Positions 6,518-58,311 of a DNA stretch of 64,000 nucleotides are shown piece after piece. Origin of the DNA: Escherichia coli (GTDB lineage: Bacteria > Pseudomonadota > Gammaproteobacteria > Enterobacterales > Enterobacteriaceae); the NCBI RefSeq assembly GCF_044324785.1, contig NZ_CP172127.1. One strand, 5' to 3'. Position numbers and translations under genes: made by a program. Position 1 is the stretch's first letter, and the number at the start of each line of letters is the position of its first letter. Under the pieces are notes generated by a model that searched no databases, was not told the DNA's origin, and saw only the letters and a list, made by a program, of their open reading frames with translations.

Positions 6518-7522
6518 TTAACGCGTTGCGGAAGTCGGCGTCTTCATGTAGCGGAAGAAATCGCTATCCGGGCTCATGACCATCACGTCCTGATTGCCAG
6601 AGAAGCTGTTCTCATAAGCACGCAGGCTACGGATAAATGCGTAGAAGTCCGGATCTTTACTGAATGCATCAGCAAACAGTTTGGCTGCTTCGGCATCGCC
6701 TTCACCACGCATGATGCGGCCCTGACGCTCAGCTTCTGCCAGCGTTCTGGTCACTTCATAGTCGGCAGTCGCACGCAGTTTTTCCGCTTCTTCCTGACCT
6801 TGTGAACGGTGACGACGCGCTACCGCTTCACGCTCGGCGCGCATACGGTTGTAGATCGCTTCAGACACTTCGGTCGGCAGGTTGATCTGCTTAATTCGCA
6901 CATCGACAACTTCAATACCCAGCGCCGCCATACTGTTCGGGTTGATGACCGGAACTTTACCCTTCGTCTCAGCCGTTACGCGCTCTGCCGCTTCGGCAAT
7001 GGCGTTATCTGCTGCCGGGGTAGTAACTTCATCTTCTGTACCCGCAGAACCGGAGTTCAGCGCGTCACGTACTTCGAGGGTCAGACGACCACGGGAATCG
7101 GTGACGATGTCTTTCACGTCCAGGCGACCAATTTCAGAACGCAGACGGTCAGAGAACTTACGTTTCAACAGCACTTCCGCTTGCGAAATGTCGCCACCGC
7201 CCGTTGCCAGGTAGTAACGGCTGAAATCGCTGATGCGCCATTTGATGTAAGAGTCGACGATCAGGTCTTTCTTCTCTTTGGTCACAAAGCGGTCGGCCTG
7301 GTTGTCCATGGTCTGAATACGTGCGTCGAGCATTTTCACCGTTTCAATGAACGGTATCTTGAAATGCAGACCCGGCTCATAAACCAGAGGTTTGTTGTCA
7401 TCGTCACGCAGTACCTTACCAAAACGCAGCGTAATACCGCGCTCACCTTCTTTGACGACAAAGACAGACATGTAAAGCACTACCAGCACGATGATGATAA
7501 TCGCGATAACTGACTTACGCAT
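6518..7522 (-). CDS. hflC: FtsH protease modulator HflC
   Basis: 334-aa SPFH/band-7 protein immediately downstream of hflK. Confidence 0.9.
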   Translation of the reverse strand: MRKSVIAIIIIVLVVLYMSVFVVKEGERGITLRFGKVLRDDDNKPLVYEPGLHFKIPFIETVKMLDARIQTMDNQADRFVTKEKKDLIVDSYIKWRISDFSRYYLATGGGDISQAEVLLKRKFSDRLRSEIGRLDVKDIVTDSRGRLTLEVRDALNSGSAGTEDEVTTPAADNAIAEAAERVTAETKGKVPVINPNSMAALGIEVVDVRIKQINLPTEVSEAIYNRMRAEREAVARRHRSQGQEEAEKLRATADYEVTRTLAEAERQGRIMRGEGDAEAAKLFADAFSKDPDFYAFIRSLRAYENSFSGNQDVMVMSPDSDFFRYMKTPTSATR

Positions 7523-48913: not shown

Positions 48914-49924
48914 ATGTCACTTAAGGCGATTGCCACTGCACTCGGAGTTTCTGTCACCACTGTCAGTCGGGCTCTTGGAGGCTATGCAGATGTGTCAGCT
49001 TCCACCCGTGCACGGGTGGAAGCTGAAGCTCGTCGACGCGGTTACCGTCCTAATACTCAGGCAAGAAGACTCAAAACCGGTAAAACCGATGCTGTCGGTC
49101 TGGTTTATCCTGGACGTGATGTGCCATTTAACAGTGGTGTTTTTATGGATATGGTCAGTTGCATCAGCCGGGAACTTGCTCACCATGATATTGACTTACT
49201 ACTGATAGCTGATGATGAGCATGCCGATTGCCACAGCTATATGCGGCTTGTTGAAAGTCGCAGGGTTGATGCTCTCATCATTGCACACACTCTGGATGAC
49301 GATCCCCGTATCACACACCTTCATAAAGCAGGTATTCCATTTCTGGCTCTTGGTCGGGTACCATCTGGTCTGCCCTGTGCGTGGTTTGACTTTGATAATC
49401 ATGCCGGGACTGGACAGGCAACCCAGAAACTGATTGCTTTGGGACATAAACGTATTGCATTGTTGAGTGAAGACACTTCACATAGCTATGTTGTTGCAAG
49501 ACGTCAGGGATGGCTTGATGCACTGAATGAGCATGAACTGGAAGATACATGGCTGCGGCTGGTTTCTCCCACACGGCGAGCAGGATATCAGGCCGTGATG
49601 GAGTTAATGTCACTACCGATACCACCAACAGCTATTATTACTGACAATGACCTGAGTGGAGATGGTGCTGCCATGGCACTGCAGTTGAGCGGTCGTCTTT
49701 CAGGAAAAGATGCGGTATCTCTGGTTGTATATGATGGTTTGCCACAGGACAGTATTATTGAGCTGGATGTGGCTGCAGTTATTCAGTCAACACGAAGCCT
49801 CGTTGGTCGCCAGATTTCCGAGATGATATATCAGATAATTACTGATTCATCATCAAAACCACTACAGGTTGTCTGGAACCCGGTATTTTATCCGGGAAAG
49901 ACGATTCATCCTCCTTGCTCCTGA
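48914..49924 (+). CDS. rafR: LacI-family raffinose operon repressor RafR
   Basis: N-terminal HTH (MSLKAIATALGVSVTTVSRALGG) plus periplasmic-binding-protein-like sugar domain; 336 aa; precedes rafA. Confidence 0.8.
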   Translation: MSLKAIATALGVSVTTVSRALGGYADVSASTRARVEAEARRRGYRPNTQARRLKTGKTDAVGLVYPGRDVPFNSGVFMDMVSCISRELAHHDIDLLLIADDEHADCHSYMRLVESRRVDALIIAHTLDDDPRITHLHKAGIPFLALGRVPSGLPCAWFDFDNHAGTGQATQKLIALGHKRIALLSEDTSHSYVVARRQGWLDALNEHELEDTWLRLVSPTRRAGYQAVMELMSLPIPPTAIITDNDLSGDGAAMALQLSGRLSGKDAVSLVVYDGLPQDSIIELDVAAVIQSTRSLVGRQISEMIYQIITDSSSKPLQVVWNPVFYPGKTIHPPCS

Positions 49925-55110: not shown

Positions 55111-56505
55111 ATGAATAAGTTACTTTTGGGTTTATCTCTTTTTTTATTACTGGAATACAATGCGTGTGCAGCAAAAACAGGGGGGCTAACGCTTGAACAA
55201 AGAATGGCATTGCTGGAAGAACGCCTGGAAGCTGCAGAAAAAAGGGCGGAAAAAGCAGAAAGAATGTTAAAGAGTTTTGATATAGAACAACATTCTGAAA
55301 TACGTCAAATTAGTTCAGAGCAGAATAAAAAAGATGCTAACAGCTATGCAGTAGTTGAGTCAACAAAAGAAAAAACATCTTCTCCAGGTTTTCTGCTCTC
55401 TGGTTACAATGATTTGAAGTTTTATGGTGATGTGGAGTTTAATATAGATGCTGCCAGTAAACCCGGTCAGTTAGTAATGATAAGTTCCGGGGCGAACAGT
55501 GAGTCAGTGAATGAACGGTGGGACCTTAATGGCCGTATTCTATTAGGTTTTGACGGTACCCGTAAGCTTGATAATGGTTATTTCGCTGGATTTTCAGCAC
55601 AACCACTGGCGGATATGCACGGTTCAGTGAATATTGATGATGCATTATTCTTTTTTGGAAAAGATGACGAGTGGAAAGTGAAAGTCGGTCGTTTTGAAGC
55701 TTACGATATGTTCCCTCTAAATCAGGATACTTTCATTGAGTATTCCGGTAATACAGCTAATGATATTTATGCTGATGGCCGTGGTTATATCTATATGATG
55801 AAAGAGGGACGCGGTCGTTCTGACGCTGGTGGTAATTTCCTCATCAGTAAACAACTCGATAACTGGTATTTTGAGTTAAACACGTTACTTGAAGACGGAA
55901 CATCTTTATATAATAACGGTAATTATCATGGACGATATATGGAGCAGCAGAAAAATGTCGCTTATCTGCGCCCGGTAATTGCCTGGTCGCCAACGGAAGA
56001 ATTCACAGTCTCCGCAGCGATGGAAGCGAACGTGGTAAAAAATGCTTATGGCTATACCGATAATAAGGGGAATTTTGTCGATCAGTCCAATCGTTCCGGT
56101 TATGGTATTAGCATGACATGGAACGGTCTGAAAACAGATCCGGAAAATGGCATCGTGGTTACTCTTAATACCGCCTATTTGGATGCCAGTAATGAGAAAG
56201 ATTTCACTGCCAGTATTAATGCTCTGTGGAAACGTTTCGAACTGGGTTATATCTACGCACATAATAAGATTGATGAATTTAGTGGTGTCGTGTGTAATAA
56301 TGGTTGCTGGATTGATGGTGAAGGAATATACAACATTCACACCATTCATGCATCTTATCAGTTTGCTAATGTGATGGATATGGAGAACTTTAATATTTAC
56401 CTCGGGGCTTATTACTCAATTCTGGATAGTAACTGTAGATATAGTAATTGTGACATTACCGATGATCGTTACGGTGCCCGATTACGTTTCAAATACTTTT
56501 TTTGA
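55111..56505 (+). CDS. rafY: Raffinose glycoporin RafY
   Basis: 464-aa protein with signal peptide, N-terminal coiled-coil (LEERLEAAEKRAEKAERMLK) and beta-rich body ending in an aromatic residue (RFKYFF), typical of outer-membrane porins. Confidence 0.8.
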   Translation: MNKLLLGLSLFLLLEYNACAAKTGGLTLEQRMALLEERLEAAEKRAEKAERMLKSFDIEQHSEIRQISSEQNKKDANSYAVVESTKEKTSSPGFLLSGYNDLKFYGDVEFNIDAASKPGQLVMISSGANSESVNERWDLNGRILLGFDGTRKLDNGYFAGFSAQPLADMHGSVNIDDALFFFGKDDEWKVKVGRFEAYDMFPLNQDTFIEYSGNTANDIYADGRGYIYMMKEGRGRSDAGGNFLISKQLDNWYFELNTLLEDGTSLYNNGNYHGRYMEQQKNVAYLRPVIAWSPTEEFTVSAAMEANVVKNAYGYTDNKGNFVDQSNRSGYGISMTWNGLKTDPENGIVVTLNTAYLDASNEKDFTASINALWKRFELGYIYAHNKIDEFSGVVCNNGCWIDGEGIYNIHTIHASYQFANVMDMENFNIYLGAYYSILDSNCRYSNCDITDDRYGARLRFKYFF

Positions 56506-57005
56506 TGCATAGTAACAAAGTATTGTTCCACACTTACATTAACGCGTTTTTCGGGCGCGTCATCAGCGATGCATACGAATGATCGCAGTCTGCCAATGGT
56601 CGATTTATCTTGGTTGCGCAGGGGCGAGCACCGGGCAGGTACCGGCGGCTGACTCTGAAGCTCTGAGTCGGGTAATTGCGTCAGGTCACGAAGGACTGAC
56701 ACGGGTATTGGTGGCAGGTGATGAAGTACTGAGTGTGGTAATTTCGGGGATGCAATGCAGGAGCTGAGTCAGGTTTGCACTGAGCTGAGGACCCGTAGCG
56801 AGCGGGTTCCTGCTATTTTTCGGTGTCAGGGGCGCAAGTCCCGACGTCGGGACTTGCCGGGAGATTGTCAGGTCATTGACCGGGTGTGAGCGGCTCGACG
56901 TAAGCGGTAGATATGCCCAATTCCCCCCGATAAATTCATTACCAAACACATTATTCAATTTGTTTTTATTTTTCCGCTTTCAGTCATTATCGCTATCGCT
57001 TCGTC

Positions 57006-57071
57006 GGTAATGACTCCAACTTATTGATAGTGTTTTATGTTCAGATAATGCCCGATGACTTTGTCATGCAG
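57006..57071. mobile_element. IS1 terminal fragment (66 bp), truncated by the IS2 insertion
   Basis: ggtaatgactccaacttattgatagtgttttatgttcagataatgcccgatgactttgtcatgcag is identical to the first 66 bp of the complete IS1 at 59354; it abuts the IS2 end directly. Confidence 0.8.
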
Positions 57072-57082
57072 TGGATTTGCCC

Positions 57083-57988
57083 CTATATTTCCAGACACCT
57101 GTTATCACTTAACCCATTACTGGTCCGCTGCCGCAGATATTCCCGTGGCGAGCGATAACCCAGCGCACTATGCGGATGCCATTCGTTATAATGCTCGAAC
57201 GCCTCTGCAAGGTTCTTTGCTGCCGTTAACCCGTCTGGTTTGGGCATGATACTGATGTAGTCACGCTTTATCGTTTTCACGAAGCTCTCTGCTATTCCGT
57301 TACTCTCCGGACTCCGCACCGCCGTGTTCTTCGGTTCAAGTCCCAACATCCGGGCGAACTGGCGTGTTTCATTAGCCCGGTAGCATGAACCATTATCCGT
57401 CAGCCACTCCACTGGAGACGACGGAAGATCGTTGCCGAAGCGGCGTTCCACCGCTCCTGGCATGACGTCCTGTACTGTTTCACTGTTGAAGCCGCCGGTA
57501 GTGACCGCCCAGTGCAGTGCCTCACGATCACAGCAGTCCAGCGCGAACGTGACACGCAGTCTCTCTCCGTTATCACAGCAGAACTCGAACCCGTCAGAGC
57601 ACCATCGCTGATTGCTTTCTTTCACGGCCACTCTGCCAGTATGTGCCCGTTTCGATGGCGGTACAGCGGTTTTTCGCTCAAGCAACAGCGCATTCTGGCG
57701 CATGATCCGGTAAACACGTTTGGCATTGATCGCAGGCATACCATCAAGTTCGGCCTGTCTGCGAAGCAGCGCCCATACCCGACGATAACCATACGTGGGC
57801 AGCTCTCCGATAACATGGTGTATACGGAGAAGCACATCCGTATCATCTGAGTGACGGCTGCGGCGACCATCTTTCCAGTCATCGGTTCGTCTGAGAATTA
57901 CGTGCAACTGCGCACGCGACACCCGGAGACAACGGCTGACTAAGCTTACTCCCCATCCCCGGGCAATAAGGGCGCGTGCGCTATCCAC
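57083..57988 (-). CDS. insD: IS2 transposase OrfB (InsD)
   Basis: 301-aa DDE transposase [30 protein letters not shown]. Confidence 0.92.
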
Positions 57989-58311
57989 TTTTTTGCACGC
58001 CCGTATTCAACGGCTTCTTTAAGGAGTTCATTTTCCATCGTTTTTTTGCCGAGCAGGCGCTGGAGTTCTTTAATCTGCTTCATGGCAGCAGCAAGTTCAG
58101 AGGCAGGAACGACCTGCTCTCCTGCGGCCACAGCAGTAAGACTTCCCTCCTGGTATTGCTTGCGCCAGAGAAATAACTGGCTGGCTGCCACACCGTGTTG
58201 CCGGGCAACAAGGGAGACCGTCATTCCCGGTTCAAAACTCTGCTGAACAATAGCGATCTTTTCCTGTGTAGTACGCCGTCTGCGTTTCTCCGGTCCTAAG
58301 ACATCAATCAT
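57946..58311 (-). CDS. insC: IS2 OrfA (InsC)
   Basis: Start [43 protein letters not shown] protein; 3' end overlaps insD in the programmed frameshift arrangement. Confidence 0.9.

Follow-up and report, generated by a model that had tools for sequence, protein, structure and literature searches.

A probable orphan right end of an IS66-family element in the tract downstream of rafY in Escherichia coli

The IS66 family of insertion sequences (tnpA-tnpB-tnpC), represented by ISEc8, ISEc22, ISCro1, and ISKpn24, provides the closest described systems for the 500-bp tract located downstream of rafY in the Escherichia coli DNA analysed here, a stretch of 64 kb (hereafter the window). The intact relatives of the tract pass the NCBIfam and Pfam models for IS66 and are alike in their terminal inverted repeats, which start with GTA, and in their length of about 2.7 kb. 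Relative to these named members, the clade of the parent element is divergent (TnpC about 32% identical to those of ISEc8, ISEc22, ISCro1, and ISKpn24), and it also differs in an unusually long non-coding tail of 300-360 bp with phased repeats. The raf locus differs in that only the right end is present. Solo ends and remnants of insertion sequences in islands resemble the tract as well, since it consists of a single inverted repeat and IS sequence without a transposase and lies among fragments of IS1, IS2, and other IS66 elements at the edge of an island. It differs from them in that the inner break falls within ~25 bp of the expected tnpC stop, and the same junction between the tail and a BRO-N gene recurs in several genomes.

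Subterminal repeat arrays are found at the ends of several transposons, such as the TnsB sites of Tn7, R1-R3 of Mu, and the multiple terminal repeats of IS21. The IS66 tail likewise carries phased direct copies of a short motif near one end, about three helical turns apart; unlike in those systems, its motif does not resemble the terminal repeat (alignment at the level of shuffles) and occurs at the right end only, and the likeness appears to be one of resemblance, not of membership. Intrinsic terminators and hairpins that stabilise 3' ends seem comparable to two features of the tract, a short plus-strand stem rich in G+C that precedes a T-run and a hairpin with a 12-bp stem, although the T-run hairpin of the tract is weak and the palindrome that would form the longer stem has no T-run.

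According to these comparisons, the tract is best read mostly as the orphan right end of an IS66-family element, followed by the last 16 codons of a BRO-N gene, i.e., as mobile-element debris (probability about 0.87). This reading is based on homology, boundaries, and the family membership of the relatives, together with the absence of a coding or known-RNA signal. The features are listed in Table 1.

Table 1. Features in and around the tract downstream of rafY (positions in the window)
Feature	Positions	Strand	Basis or remark
rafY ORF	55111-56505		stop TGA at 56503-56505
Probable orphan IS66-family right end (terminal inverted repeat and non-coding tail)	56520-56920	minus	homology to intact relatives; inner limit approximate (56896-56920)
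Decayed terminal inverted repeat, GTATTGTTCCACACTTACATTAACGCG	56520-56546	plus	aligns with both inverted repeats of the pRK1 element
Three phased direct repeats of 33 bp (starts 56657, 56690, 56723)	56657-56755	plus	motif scan
Terminator-like hairpin AGCGG-GTTC-CTGCT, then ATTTTT	56801-56820	plus (rafY strand)	consensus scan
Perfect 24-bp palindrome GCAAGTCCCGACGTCGGGACTTGC between TGTCAGG direct repeats	56834-56857	none
BRO-N domain gene, final 16 codons and stop, truncated by IS1	56955-57005	minus	translation match
IS1, terminal 66 bp, right boundary of the finding	57006-57071	none	97-98% identity
IS2 start, interrupting the IS1 end	57072

The G+C content is 0.52-0.58 across 56500-56899 compared with 0.36-0.44 within rafY, and the tract has a G>C skew of +0.31. 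The minus strand of the orphan end is the sense expected for the lost tnpABC. A preliminary description, made from the sequence alone, had presented the tract as a non-coding, repetitive, palindrome-bearing remnant rich in G+C, which is correct as a description, while its identity as an insertion sequence end went unrecognised. The 24-bp palindrome that it reported is exact (12-nt arms, no spacer), IS1 begins where it placed the IS1 end, and the degenerate direct repeats that it quoted were located at 56663, 56729, 56761, and 56777; the middle unit was overlooked, however, and with it the 33-bp period. Its statement that the tract has no convincing ORF stands for the body (no Pfam match, ORFs not conserved) but not for the last 51 bp, and its AT-rich tail does lead into IS1 but contains the missed 3' end of the BRO-N gene. 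As observations that would speak against it, it had named a match to the interior of a known gene and the loss of the repeats on re-alignment; the former is found in part, at the BRO-N 3' end, and the repeats are present on re-alignment.

The outer half of the tract (56532-56729) is 88-89% identical to the terminal 200 bp of a 2.76-kb IS66 element in pRK1 and RHB43. The search with the 500-bp tract returned, besides the full-length copies described below, partial matches of 85-89% identity, limited to query positions 27-227, in 204 plasmids and several hundred chromosomes. The nucleotide search of plasmids and phages proposed in the preliminary description led to IS66 ends on the plasmid side, whereas the phage database, searched in distant mode, gave no match to the tract. 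The 200-bp segment keeps a fixed distance from an IS66-family tnpC in pRK1 (IncI) and in an IncFIB plasmid, which are unrelated to each other. Comparison of pRK1 with RHB43 delimits a common 2.76-kb unit (94% identity) with different flanks and matching inverted repeats at its ends, the right-end repeat of the unit being GTAATATTCCGGCGAACTCATATTGAC; in the pRK1 element, the repeats are GTAATATTCCGGCGAACTCATATTGACGCG (right end) and GTAATGTTCCGGGGAACTCATCTTCAC (left end). Because the unit ends in inverted repeats, the segment that the window shares with it lies at the very edge of the insertion sequence. The pRK1-type non-coding tail extends over ~360 bp from the right inverted repeat to the tnpC stop.

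At the raf locus, a terminal inverted repeat of the family type (GTA(A) start, about 20-30 bp) is present at the tract boundary and starts 14 bp past the rafY stop. Its core CCGGnGAACTCAT is degenerate compared with intact copies, and the repeat measures 27 nt instead of 30, with several mismatches and a 3-base deficit in and beside the core, which fits a fossil. The tract matches the ends of elements that encode the IS66 proteins TnpA, TnpB, and TnpC, while no tnpA, tnpB, or tnpC ORF adjoins it and no second copy of the tail was found nearby. Without genes and with only one surviving element end, it is a remnant and not an insertion sequence itself. A MITE-like IS66 derivative was also considered and rejected, since the inner side bears no inverted copy of the terminal repeat and homology to intact tails ends close to the tnpC stop. 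In addition, the sequence from the rafY stop codon into the start of the IS66 terminal repeat was observed to lie within an AT-rich inverted repeat, AATACTTTTTT / AACAAAGTATT (56492-56524).

The inner half matches other intact elements. Over 56713-56896, the tract shares 84% identity with the tail of an intact IS66 element in Salmonella plasmid CP053333, where the match ends 23 bp before the stop of a 533-aa tnpC ORF, and over 56690-56885 it shares 71% identity with an IS66 tail of EC958 just downstream of a tnpC pseudogene. The proteins of the Salmonella relative match the Pfam models DDE_Tnp_IS66 (1e-89), zf-IS66, LZ_Tnp_IS66, DDE_Tnp_IS66_C, and TnpB_IS66 (9e-36), and the intact relatives score above the cut-off for all of the NCBIfam IS66 TnpC, TnpB, and TnpA models. 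In the intact relatives examined, which include those of pRK1, another E. coli plasmid, the Salmonella plasmid, EC958, and M18, the tails measure 300-360 bp, and each carries the phased 11-mer array. In the Salmonella plasmid (L007 6733-7195), the right end of the intact element also shows a tandem duplication of ~158 bp, which covers the terminal inverted repeat along with the first repeat units, so that the element has two nested right ends (inverted repeat copies at 6733 and 6891).

The tail in the window is a mosaic whose outer half is of the pRK1 type and whose inner half is of the Salmonella type. Similar mixtures occur among the intact elements: tnpC is 91% identical between the Salmonella and M18 elements, yet their tails are unrelated, and the pRK1 and M18 elements have tails 78% identical with tnpC at 71%. 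The palindrome of the tract is shared with one tail type of the intact relatives; in the inner module of the pRK1-type tail, it is replaced by a 12-bp inverted repeat, CCTGTCGTCAGG...CCTGACGACAGG. Judging from these alignments, tails appear to have been exchanged between elements independently of tnpC. No intact insertion sequence was found whose tail is collinear across 56520-56920, which counts against the main reading; because the window tail combines two tail types, the parent element is inferred, not observed. In one close pair, pRK1 and RHB43, tail identity is 97.1% compared with 91.1% at third codon positions of tnpC, and this higher conservation of the tail hints at either constraint or recent exchange. 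A protein-seeded contig scan for further relatives returned a single locus, and a scan of metagenomes with a 16-base pattern gave mostly chance matches, adding only variants of the same three tail lineages. Literature searches returned nothing on IS66 subterminal structure, on a long right-end tail, or on the region downstream of rafY.

Translation of the last 51 bp of the tract on the minus strand gives DEAIAIMTESGKIKTN followed by a stop, which is the C-terminus of an intact 263-aa BRO-N protein in LH10-b-1 and differs from the M18 BRO-N C-terminus at two of 16 residues. Where the IS1 insertion is absent (M18, LH10-b-1, BH100, and two metagenome contigs), the same tail is followed by an intact BRO-N gene of 261-263 aa on the opposite strand. 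Because of the match to the LH10-b-1 C-terminus, the AT-rich tail of the preliminary description consists of the 3' flank of a gene that IS1 has truncated, together with its final 16 codons. The IS1 end is 97-98% identical to sequence beside annotated IS1 transposase genes in pWR100 and pIP1206, and 57072-58000 is 98% identical to IS2 in pIP1206.

Full-length, near-identical copies of the tract were found by the 500-bp search in 289 of 5,426 complete E. coli genomes. All the copies inspected are located downstream of the raf operon and are mostly unannotated, and in about 280 genomes the tract is 100% identical. In LH10-b-1, the gene order is tRNA-Phe, integrase, rafR, rafA, rafB, rafD, rafY, tail, and BRO-N. 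Plasmid pIP1206 has in common with the window the segment 48005-56698 (L133:6996-15671) at 98.5% identity, including an identical junction between rafY and the inverted repeat; IS2 cuts the left side of this module, and the tail of the plasmid copy is both divergent and shorter, matching until 56698. Because this junction is identical, transfer of the module between chromosome and plasmid came after the IS66 end had been placed beside rafY. The plasmid module also contains the 3' part of the tyrosine integrase gene of the island, cut by IS2, and this suggests that the pIP1206 raf copy derives from the tRNA-Phe island form and not the reverse.

The block formed by the tail and the BRO-N gene is not confined to raf loci, as it is also present at the far end of a contact-dependent inhibition island, past orphan cdiA-CT/immunity modules and other IS66 fragments. 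Its flank differs in five settings, being rafY, an ISEc8-like insertion sequence in M18, a restriction-enzyme-like gene of 1646 aa at locus L075, an 824-aa ORF at locus L126, and, in BH100, a transposase fragment next to the pgt genes. For the joins that can be located (L075 against L126; M18), homology ends no more than a few bases from the terminal repeat, which fits repeated rearrangement of the region at insertion sequence ends. At two loci (L075:11-1281 and L134:12885-15693), the BRO-N/GNAT block was observed at the distal end of cdiA, after orphan VENN-motif toxin/immunity modules amid IS66 fragments. In M18 (L005 6807-13268), 3.7 kb separate the orphan tail from a complete, related IS66 element, and the right-end repeats of both face outwards, so that the two enclose BRO-N, GNAT, and a hypothetical gene and would represent a potential inverted-end pair; however, an ISEc8-like insertion sequence abuts the orphan repeat there, without a target duplication. 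A cassette of tail, BRO-N, and GNAT bounded by IS66 ends was rejected, since what looks like its far boundary in M18 simply marks where another IS66 element inserted and the block continues elsewhere into orphan cdiA-CT/immunity modules.

Taken together, these relationships would be explained by an IS66-family element that once lay directly downstream of rafY, with its right inverted repeat at the present site. The decayed terminal repeat and ~380 bp of non-coding tail, typical of an enterobacterial IS66 clade, would have survived, while the transposition genes were lost; the tail would then have become joined to the 3' flank of the BRO-N gene, which IS1 would later have cut at 57005/57006, leaving the tract at what is now the right edge of the raffinose (raf) island. 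The phased repeats, the T-run hairpin, and the palindrome would accordingly be inherited from the IS66 tail and would not have evolved at the raf locus. At this locus, the tract is most likely inert, and its hairpins may, at most, help to end raf transcription. In intact elements, the repeats and the palindrome are probably cis-acting sites; candidate roles would be binding of the transposase or a host protein, or 3'-end formation of the tnpC mRNA. The protein-binding array offered in the preliminary description would be conceivable only as a predicted cis-acting part of the parent insertion sequence. Against simple decay, however, stand the identity of the tract in about 280 genomes and the conservation of the tail, and some constraint may act on it.

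The array consists of the core GAAGnACTGAg...GGGTAAT. Copies of GAAGnACTGAg stand on one strand at exactly 33-bp spacing, and, allowing up to two mismatches, the two strands of the whole window contain only 17 matches to this 11-mer. The 33-bp units are mutually 64-70% identical and too degenerate for Tandem Repeats Finder, which called no repeat in the tract. The array GAAGTACTGAG is also present at 33-35 bp spacing in the IS66 tails of pRK1, RHB43, Salmonella, and EC958, and a motif scan found no phased 11-mer array at the tnpA-side ends of these elements. A further idea, that the units repeat the terminal repeat in inverted form and serve as extra transposase sites or MITE ends, was rejected because local alignment of the terminal repeat with the tail was no better than shuffles in all five elements.

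The palindrome GCAAGTCCCGAC|GTCGGGACTTGC has 12-nt arms that are 100% complementary with zero spacer. Because only one other perfect palindrome of at least 20 bp is present in the 64-kb window and only one of 200 composition-preserving block shuffles reached 24 bp, it is unlikely to have arisen by chance. It is conserved across three tail lineages with nine of the 12 pairs invariant and one broken; two further pairs have switched from C-G to T-A, both bases together, in the EC958 lineage, and the Salmonella copy is intermediate, with half-changed pairs. The covariation was equalled by 46 of 500 shuffles (five distinct sequences, three lineages), and its power stayed low because the metagenome scan added only variants of these lineages. 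The pair changes point weakly to selection for symmetry, which a DNA-binding palindrome and a hairpin would fit equally. As a hairpin, the palindrome would have a 12-bp stem ~60 nt past the expected tnpC end, and no T-run accompanies it on either strand.

The terminator-like site bears on the possibility that the raf operon has recruited the remnant to stop its transcription, via this hairpin and/or that of the palindrome, a role that we regard as unlikely. The site is on the rafY strand about 300 nt past the rafY stop, no G+C-rich terminator lies between that stop and the insertion sequence end, the junction between rafY and the tail is preserved in chromosomal and plasmid raf modules, and the tract is identical in the genomes mentioned above, all of which would suit such a function. 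However, the plus-strand scan gave two overlapping consensus matches (56789-56820), with 0.8 expected from shuffles, and the hairpin is weak, with a 5-bp stem that includes a G-U pair. It is recognisable, though weak, in all tail lineages (92% of cells kept over five distinct sequences, one G-C to G-U change in the stem); an equivalent of the site is present in EC958, while the Salmonella copy fails the terminator scan. Being inherited from the tail, the hairpin was not shaped at the raf locus, and pIP1206 carries the same raf genes with a tail that ends before the hairpin part.

A broader proposal is that the 300-360 bp tail is a modular cis control region of the enterobacterial IS66 clade whose orphan ends are usable in trans, which seems doubtful to us at present. 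If it were true, the phased array would bind the transposase or a host protein, in addition to the conserved palindrome, and orphan copies acting as transposon ends would contribute to the reshuffling of island cargo, the raf operon included. For the orphan end itself, use in trans by a related IS66 transposase that moves or rearranges the adjacent DNA is improbable. The different flanks of the tail and BRO-N block, the end of homology at or near the terminal repeat, and the commonness of related intact IS66 copies in E. coli are consistent with it, but the terminal repeat at the raf locus is degenerate and no second end or target duplication was found; the neighbouring insertion sequence in M18 has no target duplication either. 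Furthermore, the end of the contact-dependent inhibition island is rich in insertion sequence fragments, so ordinary recombination explains the mosaic flanks.

It is very unlikely that the tract encodes a structured non-coding RNA, as the preliminary description had considered. The palindrome, several local hairpins, the two palindrome pairs changed on both sides in one lineage, and a minus-strand folding z-score of -2.15 could be taken in its favour, but whole-tract folding is not distinctive (plus strand -1.0), and the folding and covariation analysis that the description proposed did not bear the idea out. A permissive scan of Rfam 15 gave best matches of 10-21 bits (E 2.6-7.4), far below gathering scores and not above chance, all to eukaryotic or archaeal families, and no promoter-like site was found by consensus scan. 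Moreover, relatives of the tract differ by indels and whole-module swaps, the covariation stems from three lineages only and is within reach of shuffles, and the symmetric changes suit a DNA palindrome equally.

Three local ORFs (62, 77, and 90 aa) are present in the tract, and none of them matched Pfam; they were rejected as genes, since their starts, stops, and frames are not kept in the relatives. The minus-strand ORF through the terminal repeat differs at ~20% of residues for ~12% nucleotide divergence (manual count), a level expected of unconstrained sequence. The 62-aa ORF (56579-56767, plus strand) has a case to be heard as a small-protein gene with 11-residue repeats: its 33-nt period equals 11 codons, the repeats translate alike (EALSRVIASGH, EGLTRVLVAGD, EVLSVVISGMQ), and it is called as a gene by PGAP in LH10-b-1 and as a hypothetical protein in some genomes. 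It is nevertheless highly improbable that it is real, since pRK1-type copies have an ACG start codon and TGA as the fifth codon, the 34-35 nt spacing in the Salmonella tail breaks the frame, and no Pfam match was obtained. The remaining suggestion of the preliminary description, a remnant of a transfer or replication origin (oriT or an iteron-type oriV) with the repeats as iterons, can practically be dismissed, because, although phased direct repeats and a palindrome are present and the plasmid matches lie mostly on conjugative plasmids, every homologue lies within an IS66 element or at the end of one, in plasmid and chromosomal surroundings that are unrelated to each other, most copies are chromosomal, and none has a relaxase or replication gene beside it.

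As an orphan IS66 end, the tract is a remnant of an already known kind of element and an ordinary finding, of little wider biological weight. For annotation, it explains a 500-bp gap or a spurious "hypothetical protein" downstream of rafY in ~290 complete E. coli genomes and in raf plasmids, and it fixes the right-hand boundary of the raf module at the IS66 inverted repeat. The only mildly new point is the long tail of intact IS66 elements with its phased repeats and palindrome; since IS66 transposition is poorly understood, the sites in this tail are obvious candidates for footprinting and deletion. Finally, a perfect palindrome of 32 bp, TCAGCTTCCACCCGTGCACGGGTGGAAGCTGA, longer than the one in the tract, was observed at 48995-49026 and recurs in pIP1206; its location falls in the 5' part of rafR (48914-49924), a LacI-family gene placed here by its offset from the SMS-3-5 annotation.
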